This document shows, one piece after another, positions 4,067-36,999 of a DNA stretch of 64,000 nt. Every line of letters begins with the position of its first letter. The stretch's first letter is position 1. A program made the position numbers and the translations under genes. Source of the DNA: a virus; IMG/VR virus record IMGVR_UViG_3300029171_000001. One strand, 5' to 3'. Under the pieces are notes generated by a model. The model did not search any database, was not told where the DNA came from, and worked only from the letters and a program-made list of their open reading frames with translations.

Positions 4067-4153
4067 AAGTGCTGTGGGTTTTGGAGTACCCACAGCTAAA
4101 TTTCCCAATATGTCAAAGATCTCATGTTATTTTTTACCTGAAATAACCAAAAC

Positions 4154-4184
4154 AAAAAACCCGCTCTTTTTAGGGAGCGGGTTT
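4154..4184 (-). terminator. intrinsic terminator of attenuator 1
   Basis: AAACCCGCTC-CCTAAAAA-GAGCGGGTTT followed by TTTGTTTT, between leader and first tRNA. Confidence 0.9.
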
Positions 4185-4214
4185 GTTAATTCCTTTTGTT
4201 TATATCACTTGTTT

Positions 4215-4346
4215 TTATCCAAGCTTTCTAAAAGTCAAAACATATCCGCTCCCATAGCTATAATCATAAGCTGGGGCATACCCTGCACCGCCCATCATCG
4301 GGGCAATTGCTGGAGTAGTTGCTGAATATGTAGTTACTGTTTTCAC
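4215..4346 (-). CDS. leader peptide MKTVTTYSATTPAIAPMMGGAGYAPAYDYSYGSGYVLTFRKLG (GTG start)
   Basis: Hand-translated 43 aa; Pro/Ala/Gly/Tyr/Asp-rich; contains GGGAGCGG complementary to the terminator arm. Confidence 0.8.
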   Translation of the reverse strand: MKTVTTYSATTPAIAPMMGGAGYAPAYDYSYGSGYVLTFRKLG

Positions 4347-4426
4347 CTGTTTTATTTTCTTTTAATTGTTAAAACCTATTTCTAGGTTCTTTTGATAAAT
4401 AGTAGAAAAAATTGTTTTTCGATAAT

Positions 4427-4455
4427 TTATACGTACAAAGATAGAATAAGTTTCA
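4427..4455 (-). promoter_or_regulatory. promoter TGAAAC-N16-CGTATAA with embedded TATCTTTG
   Basis: Near-identical ~48-bp block repeated at 31109-31156; TAnnTTTG is the Bacteroidetes -7 element. Confidence 0.75.
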
Positions 4456-4516
4456 ACAAGAAACAAGTTTTTTTTGAAAAAATCTTCTAAGTGATTAAAA
4501 ATCAATCCAATTAATT

Positions 4517-26847: not shown

Positions 26848-26892
26848 TTACCAAAATCGCCATACGCCCCCTACGCTATTTTTTATATTCAT
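26848..26892 (-). CDS. putative leader peptide MNIKNSVGGVWRFW
   Basis: After TATTTATA; 3' end pairs with the start region of the 26832 gene. Confidence 0.5.
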   Translation of the reverse strand: MNIKNSVGGVWRFW

Positions 26893-26960: not shown

Positions 26961-27164
26961 TTACATCTCACGATCTGTCATATCTCTCCAGTATTCCCAA
27001 TCGACAGAAACAACTTTCCCCTTTAATGATGGTCTGAAATTATCTATAAAACCAATTATTTCATCTTTTGATGGTTCTGAGTTAATATAGGGCATATTGT
27101 ATTCCTCTTTTTGCCCACCCTGAAGAGTTAGCTTGATTTTATAATATTTCCCAATCAATTTCAT
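26961..27164 (-). CDS. hypothetical protein
   Basis: 67-aa ORF. Confidence 0.6.
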   Translation of the reverse strand: MKLIGKYYKIKLTLQGGQKEEYNMPYINSEPSKDEIIGFIDNFRPSLKGKVVSVDWEYWRDMTDREM

Positions 27165-27444
27165 CCCAAATGTGTTTGTTTAATTCACTTTTCGAAGGAC
27201 GCTTGTATTTATATTCCCCAGAACACATCCAACAATTACAAGGGCAACTCGTAGTTCTTAAAAAGGTATAACACTTTCCCTGTAGCGCTTCTTTGATCAC
27301 ACCCGCTCTTGATTTAATCAAGGGGTAACCAAATTCGTCTCTTTCAATATACCTGGTTGCACCAGGTTTAATCCACATTTTAAGTCTTCTCAAAAACTTA
27401 ACGTGTTGCTTCCAGCGTCTAAACGCTCTGCTACGATTTTCCAT
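27139..27444 (-). CDS. basic hypothetical protein with CxCxxC motif
   Basis: CPCNCWMC, Arg-rich N-terminus. Confidence 0.7.
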   Translation of the reverse strand: MENRSRAFRRWKQHVKFLRRLKMWIKPGATRYIERDEFGYPLIKSRAGVIKEALQGKCYTFLRTTSCPCNCWMCSGEYKYKRPSKSELNKHIWDEIDWEIL

Positions 27445-27474
27445 TTTGCTTCAATGTAGTCATAGCCAGGGTTG

Positions 27475-27531
27475 TTAAAGCTTAAAGCCCCTGGCTTGCT
27501 ACTTGAGCAAATATCGAATTGATAATTTCAT
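27475..27531 (-). CDS. putative leader MKLSIRYLLK-TAG-QARGFKL-TAA
   Basis: After TATTTATA; TAG at the base of an AGCCAGGG/CCCTGGCT hairpin. Confidence 0.45.
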
Positions 27532-27550
27532 GTGTATAAATATTGAAAAA

Positions 27551-27811
27551 TTATTGATAATTTTTGCGATAAATGCAGACATATTTTACATCATTTTTTA
27601 AATGATCAAAAAAATACTTTTCACATTGTTTAAATGTACCAATTTTCACTAATTCATCAGAAAACATCTCATAATATAAACCATATTTCCCATCTTCTCT
27701 TAAACGAATATAGGCATATCCAGAACCATTACTGTCCTTATTTTTTTTAAAACAATAACTAACCTCATTTAAGATTATACTTTCTTCAATTACAATATCT
27801 TTCTTTTTCAT
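27551..27811 (-). CDS. hypothetical protein
   Basis: 86-aa ORF abutting trpS. Confidence 0.65.
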   Translation of the reverse strand: MKKKDIVIEESIILNEVSYCFKKNKDSNGSGYAYIRLREDGKYGLYYEMFSDELVKIGTFKQCEKYFFDHLKNDVKYVCIYRKNYQ

Positions 27812-28551
27812 TAATTTTTATTACCAAACAACTCCACCATTCTACGAGCAATTGCCTCTTTAAGTTGCAAATTTAATGAAAATTCTTGAATATCCAAACC
27901 CAACTCCCTGGCAATCATCTGTATATTTTTCAAACCTTCTTCATTCATGTTTGCTTTTTTTATCTTTCCCATATAATCTTCATCAAAAAGATATAACACA
28001 TGTTTTTCACCATCTGATTTTGACATTTTCTTCGTAGGGTCAATCAACGACATTACCTTATCCACATGTCCAAACTCATATGTATAATCATCTCTACCAC
28101 CAACACGCTTACAAATATCGTTTGCAAGCTCTATATGAGCAACCTGGTCCCTGCCAACAATAATTATGTCTGGATCATTCATCATAATATCAGCTGCCAT
28201 TAAAACTGGGTATAAAAGCAAACCCATGTCGTACTCAACCTTGTCTTTTTTATCTTTATACTGAGGCATCTTTAACAGTGTAGCAATATTTACCTTGCAG
28301 CAAAGTTTGAAAAAAAGTTCTGTATACAAAGGTGTTTGGTGCACAATTTTTTTGCACCCCAAACGAATAAGCTCTTGTTCGGTTTTATCTGAATAACTAT
28401 CGGTTGTCAAAGAATGATAATTGGCAATCAAAAAAGTAACATCATGACCTTGTTCTTGTAACTCAAGACCTTTTTTAAGACAACCTAGATAGTTACCTAT
28501 GTGAAGTTTGTTAGTCGGTTGAATGCCGATTAATATTTTTTTTGTTTTCAT
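27811..28551 (-). CDS. trpS: tryptophanyl-tRNA synthetase, compact (246 aa)
   Basis: GIQPT..LHIGNY, YPVLMAADI, VG.DQ..H.EL, KKMSKS; start re-set to MKTKK because the ORF-track extension lies in a tRNA. Confidence 0.93.
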   Translation of the reverse strand: MKTKKILIGIQPTNKLHIGNYLGCLKKGLELQEQGHDVTFLIANYHSLTTDSYSDKTEQELIRLGCKKIVHQTPLYTELFFKLCCKVNIATLLKMPQYKDKKDKVEYDMGLLLYPVLMAADIMMNDPDIIIVGRDQVAHIELANDICKRVGGRDDYTYEFGHVDKVMSLIDPTKKMSKSDGEKHVLYLFDEDYMGKIKKANMNEEGLKNIQMIARELGLDIQEFSLNLQLKEAIARRMVELFGNKN

Positions 28552-28553
28552 CG

Positions 28554-28638
28554 CACGTCGAAGAGGATTCGAACCCCTGTGAGACCTAAGTCTGCTGGTT
28601 TTGGAGACCAGTGCTATCAACCACTCTGCCATCGACGT
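28554..28638 (-). tRNA. tRNA-Trp(CCA) with long variable arm
   Basis: CTGGT-CTCCAAA-ACCAG, A1:U72, G73, AGAC-TTAG-GTCT arm; ends 2 nt before the trpS ATG. Confidence 0.88.
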
Positions 28639-28716
28639 ATATAGATGTTTAAAATTACGGATTAGAATTTTTAAAGCCTCGGTCTTGTCGCCGCTTCCTT
28701 AATCTATCACATCTTG

Positions 28717-28789
28717 CACGAGAGACAGGAATCGAACCTGCAACCTTCGGTTTTGGAGACCGCCACTCTACCAGTTGAGCTACTCTCGT
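28717..28789 (-). tRNA. tRNA-Trp(CCA)
   Basis: Canonical, loop CTCCAAA, A1:U72, G73. Confidence 0.93.
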
Positions 28790-28792
28790 GTA

Positions 28793-29386
28793 TTATTTGT
28801 TTTTGCTTTTTAAATATCTTGTTTTTCTACTTGAGTTTTTGTTTTTAGACTTATATGTATCAAGTTGAGAATCACAATTAGGACAAACCAGCCTCAAATT
28901 TATTCTAAAATTATTGTAAGCGTTACCATCTATATGATCGAGAATAAAAACCAATCTAATGTTATTCCACTCGTTTTTTATACCACACACAGCGCATTTA
29001 CAATTCTGTTCTAATAAAATGTGCTTTTTAATAAAGCTCATATTCCTATCATGACAATACTCGTGTTGGTTATTTAAATATTTGGCATATATTTCTTTAG
29101 ATTGATTTTCATAATAACAATCACGACTGCAAAAAGTTTGATCTGGGTGGGTGGTTAACTTTATATTTTTATCACACTCCTTACACTTAATTATTTTAGC
29201 TGTTCCTTTATTAGCTGGAACAAAATTATCTTTAAAATTCGCTCTTTTAGGAAGAATTATACCTAATTTTTTAGCCGCTTTTTTTATAGTTTCATCAGTA
29301 ACTCCATACATTTTACCTATCTTTATATAAGATAGTTTTTTATCAAAAATTAATGTTGACAACTCTTCTTTGTTATAATTTTTCAT
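28793..29386 (-). CDS. HNH endonuclease inside tRNA array 2
   Basis: CAVCG...LDHIDGNAYNN...NLRLVCPNC. Confidence 0.9.
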   Translation of the reverse strand: MKNYNKEELSTLIFDKKLSYIKIGKMYGVTDETIKKAAKKLGIILPKRANFKDNFVPANKGTAKIIKCKECDKNIKLTTHPDQTFCSRDCYYENQSKEIYAKYLNNQHEYCHDRNMSFIKKHILLEQNCKCAVCGIKNEWNNIRLVFILDHIDGNAYNNFRINLRLVCPNCDSQLDTYKSKNKNSSRKTRYLKSKNK

Positions 29387-29483
29387 ATTCTTTTATTTAA
29401 ATATAAAGAAAAATAACTCCAATTACTAATCAATTTAAAAAATAATCTATTAGTAATTTAAATAACTATTTCAAAGAACTTTG

Positions 29484-29560
29484 TGATCGCCACGGGAGTC
29501 GAACCCGTATGTGTCCAATTACTCTTTCAACTGCTTAGAAGGCAGAGGAGTTATGCGACC
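29484..29560 (-). tRNA. rearranged tRNA-Arg(TCT)-like RNA
   Basis: GGTCGCA TA ACTC CT CTGC-CTTCTAA-GCAG TTGAAA GAGT AATTGGACACAT, then T-arm and acceptor. Confidence 0.7.
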
Positions 29561-29567
29561 TTTTTTG

Positions 29568-29644
29568 TGACCACCACGGGATTCGAACCCATATGCATCC
29601 ACTTACTCTTTCAACGGTTTAGGAAACCGAGGAGATATGCGGCC
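29568..29644 (-). tRNA. rearranged tRNA-Arg(CCT)-like RNA
   Basis: Same layout with CGGT-TTCCTAA-ACCG. Confidence 0.7.
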
Positions 29645-29647
29645 ATT

Positions 29648-29725
29648 TGTGATTGATAATTGTGGAATCGAACCACTGAGTTTTTACACTCCGACACCTT
29701 GAGCTCAAGTCAATTTACCAATCAC
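29648..29725 (-). ncRNA. degenerate tRNA-like RNA
   Basis: GTGATTG/CAATCAC ends, GTGG-TTCGATT-CCAC arm, no anticodon arm. Confidence 0.4.
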
Positions 29726-29729
29726 TTTG

Positions 29730-29801
29730 TAGTCCCACTAGGAATCGAACCTAGATAATTGGTTTAGAAAACCAAGGCTTTATCCATTAAGCTATGGGAC
29801 C
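29730..29801 (-). tRNA. tRNA-Arg(TCT)
   Basis: TTGGT-TTTCTAA-ACCAA, canonical cloverleaf. Confidence 0.92.
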
Positions 29802-29879
29802 AAATTCTAATTAGTTAAAGTGGTTTTATGATGCCAATTAGTAATGCATCCTCATAACGGATTACCACAATCCTATTCG

Positions 29880-29961
29880 TGTTGAGGGGAGGATTCGAAC
29901 CACCAGATGATCAGTACGTACTTAATCACCTTTTCCAAACGCATGCTTATTTGACCTCAAC
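29880..29961 (-). ncRNA. tRNA-like RNA (acceptor and T-arm)
   Basis: GTTGAGG/CCTCAAC+A, T-loop TTCGAAT; middle lacks an anticodon arm. Confidence 0.5.
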
Positions 29962-29965
29962 ATTG

Positions 29966-30056
29966 CAGAAGTGACGAGATTCGAACTCGTGCGCCGATTT
30001 TCACCGACCTATCAACTTTCCAGGCTGACCCCTTTCATCCACTTGGGTACACTTCT
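29966..30056 (-). tRNA. tRNA-Ser(GGA)
   Basis: TCAGC-CTGGAAA-GTTGA, long variable arm, G73. Confidence 0.93.
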
Positions 30057-30064
30057 ATATTTTG

Positions 30065-30153
30065 CGGAGGCGGTGAGGATCGAACTCACGCAGCGGATTT
30101 CTCCGCCCTAACGGTTTAGCAAACCGTCCCCTTCACCACTTGGGTACGCCTCC
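30065..30153 (-). tRNA. tRNA-Ser(GCT)
   Basis: ACGGT-TTGCTAA-ACCGT, long variable arm, G73. Confidence 0.95.
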
Positions 30154-30158
30154 AATTG

Positions 30159-30247
30159 AGGAGAGCATAGGATTCGAACCTAATGCGGGTCTTCCCCGCA
30201 CCCTTTGTTTAGCAAACAAGGACTAGCCCAAGCCAGCATTACTCTCC
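30159..30247 (-). tRNA. tRNA-Ser(GCT)
   Basis: Loop TTGCTAA, TGCGGG/CCCGCA arm, U73. Confidence 0.85.
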
Positions 30248-30327
30248 AATTTTATCTCCGCATTTTTGCGGAGATTACGATGTTTATTCACCGCACAAAA
30301 ATAAAAAACAATACGTCAAAAAACTTT

Positions 30328-30413
30328 TGGCGGAAGATATAGGAATCGAACCCTGCCCTTGCGGACCGCCCCATGCTTCAAACATGGTTGACCACCGATG
30401 GTCGCTACCTTCC
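30328..30413 (-). tRNA. tRNA-Ser(TGA), CCA encoded
   Basis: CCATG-TTTGAAG-CATGG, variable arm, GCCA end. Confidence 0.88.
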
Positions 30414-30418
30414 AGTTG

Positions 30419-30503
30419 AGGAGAGTGTGAGATTCGAACTCACGGACCCCGAAGGGCCTCCAGTTTTCAAGACTGGTGCAATAGACCACTCTGCCAACTC
30501 TCC
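30419..30503 (-). tRNA. tRNA-Ser(TGA)
   Basis: CCAGT-CTTGAAA-ACTGG, variable arm, U73. Confidence 0.93.
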
Positions 30504-30508
30504 TTATT

Positions 30509-30889
30509 TTAATTCAATTTTGCCCAAGGCTCATAACTCAAAACAAAAGCTGTTCCCCAACCATTAGAACCTTGTCCGCCCAACTCACCCTTCTCACGCA
30601 TATCTGCAAAAATTTCTTTCATACATTTTTTTACATTGAAATTATCGCAAAGTATTTGAAAATCATTGTGGCCAAATTTAAACCCATCAAACTCAATCAC
30701 AATTTCTTTTGGTTTTTCTTTTTCATCTTCAATCAAAAGATAAGTTGTTCCCTGCAAATCGTACATCTTAGAAAAAAGCTTTAAACCATTTTCTTTCATG
30801 ATAGTGATTTGTTCATCAGTGTATTCAGTTACACCTTTGCACCATTCAATCTTGTTGATCATTCCTTGTATTAATTCTTCTTTGTTCAT
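30509..30889 (-). CDS. hypothetical protein, first gene of the array-2 operon
   Basis: 126-aa ORF between terminator and tRNAs. Confidence 0.75.
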   Translation of the reverse strand: MNKEELIQGMINKIEWCKGVTEYTDEQITIMKENGLKLFSKMYDLQGTTYLLIEDEKEKPKEIVIEFDGFKFGHNDFQILCDNFNVKKCMKEIFADMREKGELGGQGSNGWGTAFVLSYEPWAKLN

Positions 30890-30910
30890 TTTTCTTAATT
30901 TACTTTAAAT

Positions 30911-30942
30911 AAAAAACCCTGGCTTTTTGTGAGCCAGGGTTT
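30911..30942 (-). terminator. intrinsic terminator of attenuator 2
   Basis: AAACCCTGGCT-CACAAAA-AGCCAGGGTTT followed by TTTATTT. Confidence 0.9.
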
Positions 30943-30980
30943 AGAGTCCGTTGAATTAAGGGTTAAATATCTTTCTTCAG

Positions 30981-31070
30981 TTATGACAATAAATGGCCTG
31001 GCTCGGTTGCTCTACTTGAGCTCGAACTCCTTCTCCAAGACCATGATCTATTGTTTGTAACTGTTTTCAT
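30981..31070 (-). CDS. leader peptide MKTVTNNRSWSWRRSSSSSRATEPGHLLS
   Basis: Hand-translated 29 aa; codons 8-20 only Arg/Ser/Trp; GAGCCAGG complementary to the terminator arm. Confidence 0.88.
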   Translation of the reverse strand: MKTVTNNRSWSWRRSSSSSRATEPGHLLS

Positions 31071-31108
31071 TTGTTATAAATATGCTAAAAATTCTTTTTT
31101 CTGAAATT

Positions 31109-31137
31109 TTATACGTACAAAGATAGAATAAGTTTCA
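31109..31137 (-). promoter_or_regulatory. promoter TGAAAC-N16-CGTATAA with TATCTTTG
   Basis: Same block as 4427-4455. Confidence 0.75.
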
Positions 31138-31204
31138 ACAAGAAACAAGTTTTTTTACAAAATTTTTTGTTTGTTGCTGATTTTTAGGTAGATAAAATTT
31201 TTAA

Positions 31205-32503
31205 TTACTCTGCCACATTTCCTAAATTTACTGTACCACTCGCTATTTCTTCGTCGATTTTTTTAATAATAAATTCAGATACCTTAGAAATTACTTCCAG
31301 GTTTTTTTGGATTTGCTCTTTATTCGCTTTCCATAATGCCAAATATGTTGCATGATGAGATACTGGTAAATCATAATGTTTTAAAACCACATATGAAACA
31401 CTCTCAGCTTGCAATTCCATAATAGCACTATTTCTTCTCACATCATCCCCTTGATAATAAATAGAAGAAGACCTGTGGTGCATTAATTCATGTGCTATCT
31501 CATGAATCATTGTCGATAATCTTCCAGCCCCAGACACTCCAGTAGAAATATTTATGTGATCTCCAGCACTATACCCTTTCTCTCCTCTTTTTGCGTCGTT
31601 TTGAGTAACATTTATATGCATATCTTTTGCAACTTCTACAACAGCTGCATATAATTTATCAGCTGTTTCTGAAGGAGTGTTTTCACCCCACCATTTTGGT
31701 TCTTCTGGAATTTCACCCCTTTCATCTATCGGCTTGGTATCAGAAATATCAAAAACATTTACCGCCTTAAATCCTCTAATTTCTTTTTCATTACCAAGAG
31801 TACTTCCATCAACTGAACTATCAACATCTTCCACGCCCTTTTGTTTGCTAATTAAAGGAGCAAGTATTGTAATACCCTTAGCACCTTTTTGAACTTGTCT
31901 GAACTTAGACTTCCAAGTATTAAAAGATGCAACACGTGTCGCATCTGGTTTTTGAATATAAATTAAAATTTTATTGAAGAAACTGTAATTATGGAACTTA
32001 GAAAAGAACGTTAAATACCTTCTTATCTCAGCAGAAAGAGCGGCTTCATCAGTTGCGTTTGCTAAATCGCTTATATATTGATCTAGTTTTGTTTTTAACA
32101 AGCTTTTATTATCTGCATCAGCAGCCATTACAGCCCCTTCAACATCTTCGAGTGAATTAATAATGTACTCCACCTTGTTTGCTGTTGAGAGTGTTTTTTT
32201 AGCCATTTCAAATTTGTCTACTGGGATGGCCCAATGATTTCCAGTCCAAATAAATCCATTTTGTTTTAAAAGCGCCTTGTTTTTAAAGGTCTCTTGATTT
32301 GCTGCTTTTCCATCAAGATCAGATACCACGATTAGCCTATTTTGTTCTTTGTCGTGTTGCAATTTTAGCGCTTCACGCATTATACCCTCATTAAGCTCTT
32401 GTGTTATGTGTTGCTTTTCTTCTTTTAAAAGTTCTATTTTGTAAAGCCTTTTGGCCTCAGAAATGATATACTTCTTTAGATCTGAAATGGTGATTTTTGC
32501 CAT
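31205..32503 (-). CDS. ArdC-like ssDNA-binding domain plus HExxH metallopeptidase domain
   Basis: FHNYSFFN.ILI..Q.P.AT.VA.F..W, HEIAHE, ELQAESVSY. Confidence 0.8.
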   Translation of the reverse strand: MAKITISDLKKYIISEAKRLYKIELLKEEKQHITQELNEGIMREALKLQHDKEQNRLIVVSDLDGKAANQETFKNKALLKQNGFIWTGNHWAIPVDKFEMAKKTLSTANKVEYIINSLEDVEGAVMAADADNKSLLKTKLDQYISDLANATDEAALSAEIRRYLTFFSKFHNYSFFNKILIYIQKPDATRVASFNTWKSKFRQVQKGAKGITILAPLISKQKGVEDVDSSVDGSTLGNEKEIRGFKAVNVFDISDTKPIDERGEIPEEPKWWGENTPSETADKLYAAVVEVAKDMHINVTQNDAKRGEKGYSAGDHINISTGVSGAGRLSTMIHEIAHELMHHRSSSIYYQGDDVRRNSAIMELQAESVSYVVLKHYDLPVSHHATYLALWKANKEQIQKNLEVISKVSEFIIKKIDEEIASGTVNLGNVAE

Positions 32504-32542
32504 ATGAAATTAACTTTCATATAAATATGACGTTTTTTTGGT

Positions 32543-32794
32543 TTACTTGGTATTAAACCATTCTTCTCTGGAAGAATTTATAACATATGATTGGTGGACC
32601 TGGAAAAACCTTTTAATACTTGCGCAGACTTCGTATTTTTCTTTACCACAGAAATACCCAAGAGCCTCTTCGATAGCAAATGTTGGTATCAACCACTCAG
32701 ACTCTGTTTTGGAAATTTTATTTTCTGCAAGCGCTGCTATTCCATAGTAAATTTTTACATCTAATTTATCATTTATTTGTCTGCTTATTTTCAT
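32543..32794 (-). CDS. hypothetical protein
   Basis: 83-aa ORF. Confidence 0.6.
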   Translation of the reverse strand: MKISRQINDKLDVKIYYGIAALAENKISKTESEWLIPTFAIEEALGYFCGKEKYEVCASIKRFFQVHQSYVINSSREEWFNTK

Positions 32795-32924
32795 AACATA
32801 TTACTCGACGTGGTCGCAAACCTTTGATATGTGTGGTATTTATTCATTGTGTTGTATATAAATAACCAAGTAATTTGTGTAATCAAGAAGAAAAAAAATT
32901 TTTAAAAATAAAGTTTGTTTCTCT

Positions 32925-33188
32925 TTATTTTATGAATTTTTCTATATATTTAAGAGGCTCTTCATAAGCAACCATTATCTTTAAATGTTCTAGAAAATGC
33001 ATGCTAGACTTGGTACCTGGGACGGCCCAAAACGCCTCAGCAAACTTTAAATCAAAGATAATAGAGTAATAATGTTTTCTATCCAATACATAACCCAATT
33101 CATAATCAATTTCTGGATCTTTATATCCGTTATTTACCGCTTGCCTTATAGCTGCTATTAAAATATCTTTTGTTTTCATGGTATTCAT
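32925..33188 (-). CDS. hypothetical protein
   Basis: 87-aa ORF. Confidence 0.7.
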   Translation of the reverse strand: MNTMKTKDILIAAIRQAVNNGYKDPEIDYELGYVLDRKHYYSIIFDLKFAEAFWAVPGTKSSMHFLEHLKIMVAYEEPLKYIEKFIK

Positions 33189-35839: not shown

Positions 35840-35887
35840 TGGGAGTGTAGTCATCGAAGACCTTGACCATATTTCAGTCACACTCCC
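35840..35887 (-). ncRNA. mini-tRNA 1 (48 nt)
   Basis: GGGAGTG TGAC-loop-GTCA A GGTC-TTCGAT-GACT A CACTCCC A. Confidence 0.7.
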
Positions 35888-35936
35888 TGGTGGTTAGGAA
35901 AGGATATTATCCTCATACATCACCAAAGACCCAACC
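35888..35936 (-). ncRNA. minihelix-like RNA with CCA
   Basis: GGTTGGG/CCTAACC ACCA with AGGAT/ATCCT hairpin. Confidence 0.5.
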
Positions 35937-35982
35937 TGGTGGAGAGCAGATCACTTAAGACCCTAACTTTACAGCACTCTCC
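35937..35982 (-). ncRNA. mini-tRNA 2 (46 nt, CCA)
   Basis: GGAGAGT GCT-GTAA-AGT TAG GGTC-TTAAGT-GATC T GCTCTCC ACCA. Confidence 0.75.
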
Positions 35983-35986
35983 TTTG

Positions 35987-36112
35987 TGGCTCTTAAAGGA
36001 TTCGAACCTCTGACAAAACAAAAAATGATATCGTTTTTGTTGTGCTAGTCTACCATATTTTCATTTAGTTACTCGTTGCAACATTTCACTAAAATCCAAT
36101 TGACCAAAAGCC
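35987..36112 (-). ncRNA. 126-nt tRNA-like RNA with D-loop insert and extended central stem
   Basis: GGCTTTT/AAGAGCC+A, AGAGG-TTCGAAT-CCTTT, D-stem GTC/GAC. Confidence 0.55.
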
Positions 36113-36117
36113 ATTTG

Positions 36118-36261
36118 TGGACGTAGAAGGAATCGAACCTCCAATCTTCAGCGTTCCGTGTTAACTTGCAGAACTTCGATCATCCCTCACCTTTCATTAT
36201 TGTCTCGCTTTTATTTGCAAATTATTATGCGATATTTTCATTTCCAGTGCGATATACGCCC
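36118..36261 (-). ncRNA. 144-nt tRNA-Ala-like RNA with large inserts
   Basis: GGGCGTA/TACGTCC+A (G3:U70), D-stem TCGC/GCGA, GGAGG-TTCGATT-CCTTC. Confidence 0.55.
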
Positions 36262-36282
36262 ATATTTTAAAGAACATTTTTG

Positions 36283-36354
36283 AGATCCATGTCGGGTTCG
36301 AACCGACGACCTTGGCTTTTAGAGGGCCTTGCTCTGCCGCTGAGCTAATGGATC
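36283..36354 (-). tRNA. amber suppressor tRNA (CTA anticodon)
   Basis: GATCCAT/ATGGATC, U73, GCTC/GAGC D-stem, loop CTCTAAA, 3-bp anticodon stem plus mismatches. Confidence 0.8.
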
Positions 36355-36360
36355 ATTTTG

Positions 36361-36435
36361 AGCAGGAGGATGGAATCGAACCACCGTCCTCTGATATTGC
36401 GTATCAGCGCTTGCAGCCAACTCAGCTACTCCTGC
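36361..36435 (-). tRNA. second tRNA-Cys(GCA)-like with A32/C33/U38
   Basis: GCAGGAG/CTCCTGC, U73, CTGAT-ACGCAAT-ATCAG. Confidence 0.7.
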
Positions 36436-36440
36436 TTTTG

Positions 36441-36511
36441 TGGGGGAAGATGTTAACGAAACATCGACCTTCTCTCTTGCGAAAAACGCTCTTCAACTGA
36501 GCTATTCCCCC
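36441..36511 (-). ncRNA. tRNA-like RNA with CGCAA anticodon region
   Basis: GGGGGAA/TTCCCCC+A, GCTC/GAGC, TTTTC-GCAA-GAGAG, T-loop TTCGTTA. Confidence 0.6.
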
Positions 36512-36557
36512 TGGTGGAGAGCAGATCACTTAAGACCCTAACTTTTCAGCACTCTCC
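36512..36557 (-). ncRNA. mini-tRNA 3 (46 nt, CCA), copy of mini-tRNA 2
   Basis: Differs from 35937-35982 only in the loop (GAAA vs GTAA). Confidence 0.75.
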
Positions 36558-36562
36558 TTGTG

Positions 36563-36606
36563 TGGGGAAGCAGTCATCTAAGACCTTGTTCTTTCGAACC
36601 TTCCCC
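36563..36606 (-). ncRNA. mini-tRNA 4 (44 nt)
   Basis: GGGGAAG GTTC-GAAA-GAAC AA GGTC-TTAGAT-GACT G CTTCCCC A. Confidence 0.75.
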
Positions 36607-36756
36607 AAGTCCTCTTGTTCCCACTTAAGGGACAATGTTTGAGTTTTTGTTTCTTAGCCAAGTCGCAATCCAAGGCCTGTCTTTTTTGGGTCTGCAGAAC
36701 CCAGACTGTTTCCACTCGCTCACTGATTTTTCAATCTGCGCATCAATTGAAAAACT

Positions 36757-36999
36757 TCAAGAGGTTTTTATTTTATAGATGAAGTGATTTGTGTTTGGCA
36801 TATAACCTTTACCACTTCTATCAAAGAACATTTTGTTTTGCTTATTATCTTCTACTACAATTGCTTCATCAGTTAAATCTATTACCACCCACCAATGTTT
36901 CCACTCTACAGTTGGATTTATTTCATCAGTTGCGCAAGATATTGCAAGTAGTTGACTTTTTACTTTATCACCAATTTTAATATTTGTCAAATTAATCAT
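36757..36999 (-). CDS. hypothetical protein
   Basis: 80-aa ORF. Confidence 0.65.
   Translation of the reverse strand: MINLTNIKIGDKVKSQLLAISCATDEINPTVEWKHWWVVIDLTDEAIVVEDNKQNKMFFDRSGKGYMPNTNHFIYKIKTS

Follow-up and report, generated by a model that had tools for sequence, protein, structure and literature searches.

The DNA analysed here, referred to as the window throughout, is a stretch of 64,000 nucleotides from a virus, and in its leader/tRNA part all genes lie on the minus strand (Table 1). A gap of 135 nt separates the stop codon of a gene for an ArdC-like protein from a short leader ORF, and a predicted promoter lies between the two. The leader ORF is followed by a strong terminator, one ORF of 126 codons, tRNA genes for Ser, Arg and Trp, and a gene for tryptophanyl-tRNA synthetase (TrpRS). 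An earlier note on this DNA had proposed the layout from the promoter to TrpRS, with a leader of 29 amino acids, and all of its parts were located, on the minus strand.

Table 1. Features of the leader/tRNA locus, of the second cassette in the window and of the other leader types, as predicted from sequence
Feature	Position	Strand	Remarks
ArdC-like gene	32503-31205	-	432 aa; PF08401
Promoter	31118..31148	-	Bacteroidota sigma-A type; -33 TTG (31148-31146), 20-nt spacer, -7 box TATCTTTG (31125-31118)
ATATTTATAA motif	31074..31083	-	predicted 5' UTR, 3 nt before leader ATG
Leader ORF	30981..31070	-	29 codons + TAA; translation MKTVTNNRSWSWRRSSSSSRATEPGHLLS
Regulatory run	31011..31049	-	13 consecutive Ser/Arg/Trp codons (codons 8-20); 13/13 readable by tRNAs of the downstream array
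P1	30978..31063	-	long hairpin over leader ORF, anti-antiterminator ("protector"); RNAalifold consensus, columns 8-93
Antiterminator, 5' strand	30997..31004	-	GAGCCAGG (codons Glu-Pro-Gly); overlaps P1 3' strand
Antiterminator, 3' strand	30931..30938	-	CCTGGCTC (CCUGGCUC); terminator 5' arm plus first loop base
Intrinsic terminator	30908..30942 (hairpin 30942-30914)	-	GC-rich 11-bp stem AAACCCUGGCU/AGCCAGGGUUU, 7-nt loop, U tract
126-aa ORF	30509..30889	-	17 homologues
Regulated tRNA array	28553..30503	-	Ser-UGA, Ser-GCU, Ser-GGA, Arg-UCU, two odd Arg-like genes (CCU, UCU), HNH gene, two Trp-CCA
HNH endonuclease gene	28793-29386	-	inside tRNA array
TrpRS gene	27811..28551	-	short; PF00579, E = 4e-39; last recognisable gene of the unit
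Second cassette	4151..4466	-	like design; promoter box at 4443-4436 identical to the first
Second leader ORF	4346-4215	-	GTG start, opens with the same MKTVT; run GGAGYAPAYDYSYGSGY at 4292-4242
Second antiterminator	4253-4246 with 4180-4173	-	8 bp, GGGAGCGG with CCGCUCCC; matched by 1/500 shuffles
Second terminator	4184-4157	-	
tRNAs behind second cassette	4066-197	-	Pro, Ser, Asp, Tyr, Ala, Gly
Leader ...LRSLRALFLVQVLFVLF...			tRNAs Phe, Val, Leu, Arg-ACG
Leader ...QQQQQQ...			four Gln tRNAs
Leader MLMNNLHTTKTTTIKHNICINKT...			tRNAs Asn, His, Thr, Lys, Ile, Met, Leu, Cys
Leader ...RHNGKNNSTTKNTSIGTTR...			tRNAs His, Ser, Ile, Thr, Asn, Arg

In Flavobacterium, sigma-A promoters carry a -7 box, TAnnTTTG, at positions -12 to -5, Shine-Dalgarno sequences are absent, and leader-peptide attenuation has been suspected for amino-acid operons of the family (PMC9723704). 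The genes in the window likewise lack Shine-Dalgarno sequences, and the pattern TTG-N17-21-TAnnTTTG was found 17 times on the coding strand and five times on the other strand, against a mean of 4.4 in shuffled sequences. The box TATCTTTG ahead of the leader was kept in all relatives. Since the Flavobacterium box sits at -12 to -5 (PMC9723704), transcription is predicted to start at about 31113, so that the transcript would have about 43 nt ahead of the leader ATG. There is no room for a further promoter ahead of the 126-aa ORF, which starts 25 nt past the terminator stem, or ahead of the first tRNA gene, 6 nt past that ORF; in the other cassettes described below, the first tRNA begins 12-90 nt past the U tract.

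The motif ATATTTATAA belongs to a family of ATATTTATWA sites, which number 13 in the window where 1.5 would be expected; 12 lie on the coding strand, 2-40 nt ahead of start codons (for example 31083-31074, 26109-26100 and 44309-44300). These sites may be translation-initiation elements in a host without Shine-Dalgarno sequences, or they may be a second or phage-specific promoter. As the promoter of the leader the motif was rejected: in relatives, all of which keep the ORF, it stands anywhere between 2 and 8 nt ahead of the ATG, and 35 nt upstream there is a canonical Bacteroidota promoter; it would, besides, place the start of transcription at or past the ATG. At two ATATTTATAA sites, near 26850 and 38090 (minus strand), a shared AGCGTAGGGGG motif follows 40-50 nt on and may be another conserved RNA element.

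Promoters of the identical type stand before ordinary genes at two other loci (L177 and L178) with neither leader nor terminator, and a third promoter box in the window (37722-37709) was rejected as a cassette, being followed by an ordinary-looking ORF without a leader and terminator. At that site (37722-37252, minus strand) the box is followed by ATG-TTG-TAG in frame with the ORF of about 121 aa, which resembles a Pth2-like peptidyl-tRNA hydrolase, by eye only.

The run of 13 consecutive Ser/Arg/Trp codons to which the earlier note had drawn attention is present in the leader ORF and is the only run of eight or more such codons across all six frames of the 64-kb window. In 60 random Markov windows with the same dinucleotide make-up, the longest runs reached maxima of 4-9 codons. 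We used this empirical count in place of the estimate of (9/61)^13 that had been offered for the run, which is naive and post hoc. As had also been claimed, all Arg codons of the leader are AGA or AGG, and the array supplies Arg-UCU and Arg-CCU.

Conservation could not be assessed in GenBank phage records, in which the leader/tRNA region has no match. Relatives found through the ArdC-like gene (L003-L010) were unusable for this purpose, having neither the tRNA island nor the cassette; since both are missing together, the cassette travels with the tRNAs. Exact and degenerate leader patterns retrieved from IMG/VR only a contig like the source or chance matches in GC-rich contigs. We therefore relied on relatives of the 126-aa ORF, found in six metagenome loci and 17 protein clusters, 12 of which were looked up (loci L020-L035). 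About 15 distinct cassettes were obtained in this way; the protein next to them showed 56-98% identity. The Ser/Arg/Trp leader was found in every locus in which the 126-aa ORF is followed by Ser/Arg/Trp tRNAs, in three of them further upstream by one ORF. Metagenomes of freshwater, wetlands and wastewater, from many different studies, contain the phage and variants of it.

Across these relatives the leader ORF and its Ser/Arg/Trp codon content were kept, which answers the conservation check that had been suggested for the leader. In an alignment of 12 distinct sequences (A1), the start and stop codons were invariant, and insertions and deletions within the ORF comprised whole codons only (3 and 9 nt); a further DNA variant, from read data, has a 9-nt deletion within the run. 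Variable columns at the first, second and third codon positions numbered 5, 8 and 15. Codons 10-19 showed synonymous change only (TCT/TCA/TCG, AGG/AGA, AGT/AGC, TCG/TCA), codons 8-9 swapped between Arg-Ser and Ser-Arg, which took several base changes, and neither Trp codon changed in any of the aligned relatives. In the spacer past the leader stop, 33 of 39 columns were variable, with indels of any length. On these comparisons, the leader ORF is evolving as a coding sequence.

The leader RNA folded better than all of 200 shuffled sequences (z = -3.66, single-sequence fold), and three helices were predicted in it. The first, P1, spans the leader ORF and contains ATGGTCTTGG (AUGGUCUUGG; 31044-31035) paired with CCAGGCCAT (CCAGGCCAU; 31001-30993). 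In the second, the antiterminator, GAGCCAGG is perfectly complementary to CCTGGCTC, and the third is the hairpin of the terminator. Both the protector pairing and the antiterminator pairing that the earlier note had pointed out are thus real. The sequence CCAGG is common to P1 and the antiterminator, and CCUGGCU to the antiterminator and the terminator; the helices are mutually exclusive, and promoter, ORF, P1, antiterminator and terminator follow each other in the classical order.

Covariation, which had been named as a check on these pairings, was found for P1 and the terminator. In the RNAalifold consensus, five pairs had changed on both sides and remained paired, three of them consecutive in the outer stem of P1 and two in the terminator (pairs 133-157 and 139-151). 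Across the 12 sequences, the 8-bp antiterminator was paired in 95 of 96 cells, with one pair occurring as G-C, G-U or A-U, and it had sharp ends, in that the flanks never paired. When its partner was slid by 1-3 columns as a control, only 15-57 of 96 cells were paired, and the duplex was equalled in 2 of 500 shuffles. Since the relatives are few and closely related, the covariation rests on a handful of events.

Computed energies were about -26 kcal/mol for P1, -12.5 for the antiterminator with its loop and -17.8 for the terminator. As the antiterminator is weaker than the terminator, it must win by forming first. In a ribosome footprint model, GAGCCAGG remains free while the A site is on codons 2-19 and is masked when it is on codons 20-30; the regulatory run occupies codons 8-20. 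In equilibrium folding without a ribosome, the partial transcript favoured the antiterminator and not the state that permits termination. Termination in the absence of stalling must therefore rest on kinetics, with P1 forming first, or on masking by the ribosome. This step is inferred. It is plausible, and classical attenuators call for the same argument from kinetics.

The 126-aa ORF begins 25 nt past the terminator stem and ends 6 nt ahead of tRNA-Ser, and is thus the first gene behind the presumed attenuator. Its protein had no match in Pfam, PHROG, PDB or AlphaFold DB clusters (model pLDDT 77, best E-values about 0.1-0.2). Its linkage to a Ser/Arg/Trp array was constant across the 17 homologues, in which the motifs FGHNDF and GTAFV were invariant. 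This suggests, by position only, that the protein is tied to tRNA biology.

For the array itself, ARAGORN called Ser-UGA, Ser-GCU, Ser-GGA, Arg-UCU and two Trp-CCA genes. The list of anticodons in the earlier note holds to that extent; its Arg-CCU corresponds in the window only to a tRNA-like gene of non-canonical form at about 29635-29560, which has the loop TTCCTAA and no ARAGORN call. A canonical Arg-CCU is present in a relative of 98% identity (L012). Between 29723 and 29485 (minus strand) there are three tRNA-like genes without an ARAGORN call. Two odd ones (about 29635-29485) lack a normal D arm. They have a good acceptor stem and T arm, an anticodon loop with CCU or UCU (Arg) and, past the anticodon arm, a long segment; against Rfam, 29485-29560 gave only a weak tRNA-Sec-like match. 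At the spot of the HNH gene, relatives have a GIY-YIG/NUMOD3 gene or nothing, and the tRNA arrays are thus targets of mobile endonucleases. TrpRS, counted from the ATG at 28551, has about 246 aa; the longest ORF (27811-28632, minus strand) overlaps the adjoining tRNA-Trp, the body of which is unusually long (86 nt).

Elsewhere in the window, the stretch 35840-36760 (minus strand) is dense in short tRNA-like minihelices. Two that are nearly identical and end in CCA (GGAGAGTGCTG...CTCTCCACCA, at about 36557-36510 and 35978-35931) sit among Cys tRNAs and a tRNA of the amber-suppressor type (anticodon CUA, 36282-36354). Long genes near the latter nonetheless read normally in code 11.

A second cassette of like design lies near the other end of the window. 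Its leader contains GGAGYAPAYDYSYGSGY, an uninterrupted series of 17 codons for Gly, Ala, Tyr, Pro, Asp and Ser only, which is the longest run of its kind in the window (next best 11, random maxima 6-10). A search of IMG/VR with the pattern of this leader gave two chance matches only. Four more leader types were obtained from a promoter-box search of IMG/VR, in which most of the 120 matches to the short pattern were due to chance, and from two related contigs, G001 (189 kb) and G002 (154 kb), taken whole. A leader precedes both tRNA clusters of G001 and all four of G002. G002 is identical to the window around the first leader; elsewhere, sampled 30-mers were unmatched and the spacing between cassettes differs, and the two are therefore mosaic relatives and not one genome.

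Six leaders were then compared with six arrays from the window and contigs G001-G003. The true pairing of leaders with arrays was the unique best of 720 permutations, whether scored by the longest run, by the fraction of matching amino acids or by a strict codon-anticodon wobble match. The match extended to synonymous codons: leader Arg codons were AGA/AGG with Arg-UCU/CCU arrays, CGC/CGU with Arg-ACG, and one of each with arrays that have both. A GC-rich terminator hairpin with a U run was present in every cassette. For four of the six leaders, the energy of the antiterminator was reached in 0-2 of 500-1000 shuffles; the Gln leader was moderate, and in the leader of G003 no clear antiterminator was found by a simple duplex test.

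We interpret the locus as a working ribosome-mediated (leader-peptide) transcription attenuator that gates a phage tRNA operon, with a probability of roughly 0.8 and without experimental evidence. The features by which such an element can be judged from its sequence are met, namely a conserved short ORF, codons that match the array, a terminator with no later promoter, and an antiterminator and a protector that share strands. That stalling raises read-through, and that cleaved or uncharged host tRNA is the natural trigger, are inferences, and coupling of transcription and translation in the host is assumed.

According to this interpretation, transcription would start from the host-type promoter about 43 nt ahead of the leader ATG, and a ribosome would translate the 29 codons close behind the RNA polymerase. 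With fast decoding of Ser, Arg and Trp, the ribosome would reach the last third of the ORF and the stop codon and cover GAGCCAGG, or P1 would re-form after its release and sequester the same strand. In either case the terminator hairpin could form, and transcription would end about 160 nt from the ATG. Slow decoding at any of the 13 Ser/Arg/Trp codons would instead stall the ribosome on the 5' strand of P1. The likely trigger, again by inference, is a shortage of the matching charged tRNA brought about by codon-usage mismatch, host shut-off, starvation or tRNA-cleaving defences of the kind discussed in PMC10264068 and PMC11555353. The stall would free GAGCCAGG to pair with CCUGGCUC once this had been transcribed, no terminator would form, and the polymerase would continue into the 126-aa ORF, the Ser/Arg/Trp tRNA genes and TrpRS. 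The new tRNAs would then relieve the stall, which amounts to negative feedback on tRNA supply.

Three other explanations were weighed. The one that holds up best, improbable as we consider it, accepts that the leader senses decoding and places the output elsewhere, in processing or stability of a polycistronic precursor, with the hairpin as the element responsible, or in Rho-dependent termination. The codon match indicates indeed that decoding is sensed and not how the signal is used; equilibrium folding alone does not favour the terminator-permissive state, and the G003 leader lacks a clear antiterminator. Yet every cassette has what looks like a textbook intrinsic terminator, with a GC-rich stem (11 bp in the first) and a U run, and the complement to it is conserved, with sharp ends and compensatory change. 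Polarity of the Rho type would, moreover, have the wrong sign for control of supply, since stalling would lower tRNA synthesis.

We regard as quite improbable that the leader region is an independent small gene, for a structured sRNA or for the 29-aa peptide, which has its own promoter and terminator and acts in trans, with the downstream genes served by constitutive leakage through the terminator. A promoter, a structured RNA of about 200 nt (z = -3.66) and a strong terminator would be typical of an sRNA gene too, and RNAs derived from attenuators can act in trans, according to the rnTrpL papers. The leader stretch was found in metatranscriptomes from several studies, and in two of these the sole contig on 29900-31400, pieces of tRNA genes aside, spanned 30860-31037 or 30860-31061 and thus took in the leader, the terminator and about 50 nt past it. 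Two other metatranscriptomes covered a relative of 93% identity evenly across the stretch, which may be DNA. As contigs cannot show 5' or 3' ends, the RNA contigs are weak support at best for transcription of the leader. A gene acting in trans, however, has no reason to spell six peptides in the amino acids and codons of its own downstream tRNAs or to keep a covarying complement to the 5' arm of its terminator, and it would leave the 126-aa ORF and the tRNAs without any other promoter. An origin of the leader from a tRNA remnant or a known RNA was rejected, as Rfam gave chance-level sRNA matches only.

The weakest explanation, which can hardly be maintained and is already disfavoured, is that ORF and codons are a side effect of RNA structure, or have arisen by chance in an AG/TC-rich palindrome, with a terminator that merely ends the ArdC-like transcript: stems rich in AG/CT readily give rise to AGN and TCN codons, the ORF does sit within a long hairpin and an open frame of 29 codons is by itself not rare in AT-rich DNA, but this leaves unexplained the whole-codon indels, the invariant start and stop, the third-position change in unpaired columns, a Ser/Arg/Trp run that is unique in the window when random windows reach at most nine, the conserved promoter between the ArdC-like gene and the ORF, the absence of the cassette from ArdC-sharing relatives without the tRNA island, and the match of five other, quite different leaders to their own arrays.

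We thus prefer the attenuator, and, taking the six leaders together, it is probable that a lineage of large phages, with Bacteroidota-like hosts, runs its whole tRNA repertoire as demand-controlled operons, each behind a multivalent attenuator written in its own codons. If so, the phage would gauge host translation codon by codon and top up only those tRNAs that run short, and would treat tRNA supply as a regulated, demand-driven function. The leaders would reveal for which codons the phage anticipates a limitation, which would give an experimental handle, and each cassette would double as an in-built sensor for host defences that cleave tRNA. Leader-peptide attenuation, familiar from textbooks for amino-acid and synthetase genes, would be extended to tRNA genes and to viruses, and compact, codon-specific sensors of translation capacity would become available to synthetic biology.

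The reason for the presence of tRNA genes in phages has been under debate for decades, the main answers offered being codon compensation, host shut-off and evasion of tRNA-cleaving defences. Phage tRNAs have been described as replacing host tRNAs that are scarce or have been cleaved by defence nucleases, which provides a natural reason to sense decoding speed; the papers on this appear to treat the function of phage tRNAs and not the control of their transcription by demand (PMC10264068, PMC11555353, PMC11464382). Neither for phages nor for cells did we find leader-peptide attenuation of tRNA genes described in a full-text literature of large but incomplete coverage. This agrees with the statement of the earlier note that no attenuator of a tRNA array has been described, and cannot prove it.

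Among known elements, T-box riboswitches resemble the phage element in that they sense the state of tRNA and act through a terminator/antiterminator switch ahead of genes for aminoacylation or amino-acid supply. T-boxes, however, bind uncharged tRNA directly through a specifier loop, without translation, whereas the phage element has a conserved translated ORF; the T-box covariance model had no match at E <= 10 on 27000-33000. Nor was any of the Rfam leader families matched on the same stretch at this threshold, and the second cassette scored 19-25 bits with the Thr, Trp, Phe and Leu leader models (including RF00513 and RF00506), against thresholds of 41-55.

In all leader-peptide attenuators that are described, to our knowledge, the cargo consists of enzymes of amino-acid biosynthesis or of an aminoacyl-tRNA synthetase. 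The phage unit does not meet this criterion, having at least six tRNA genes, an unknown ORF, an HNH endonuclease gene and TrpRS. The tRNA cargo is the point of novelty and not a requirement of the mechanism. E. coli pheST has a leader-peptide attenuator that controls a synthetase only and senses one amino acid. Like it, the phage unit controls a component of the translation apparatus, having TrpRS behind a leader with Trp codons, but its main cargo is a tRNA array for three amino acids.

The enterobacterial attenuators of ilvGMEDA (Ile/Leu/Val), thr (Thr/Ile), trpL, hisL, pheL and leuL share with the phage leader a short translated ORF with a run of regulatory codons, three alternative hairpins (protector 1:2, antiterminator 2:3, terminator 3:4) and an intrinsic terminator directly ahead of the regulated genes. 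The multivalent ilv and thr leaders are the closest in logic, since one leader senses several amino acids, as in the phage. In sequence, no relationship between the phage leader and the enterobacterial attenuators was detected. Their cargo is biosynthetic enzymes, whereas that of the phage is tRNA genes, one synthetase and the unknown ORF, and the feedback would therefore act on tRNA supply itself. Unlike the enterobacterial attenuators, the phage leaders address up to eight amino acids each, and their synonymous codons follow the anticodons that the arrays supply.
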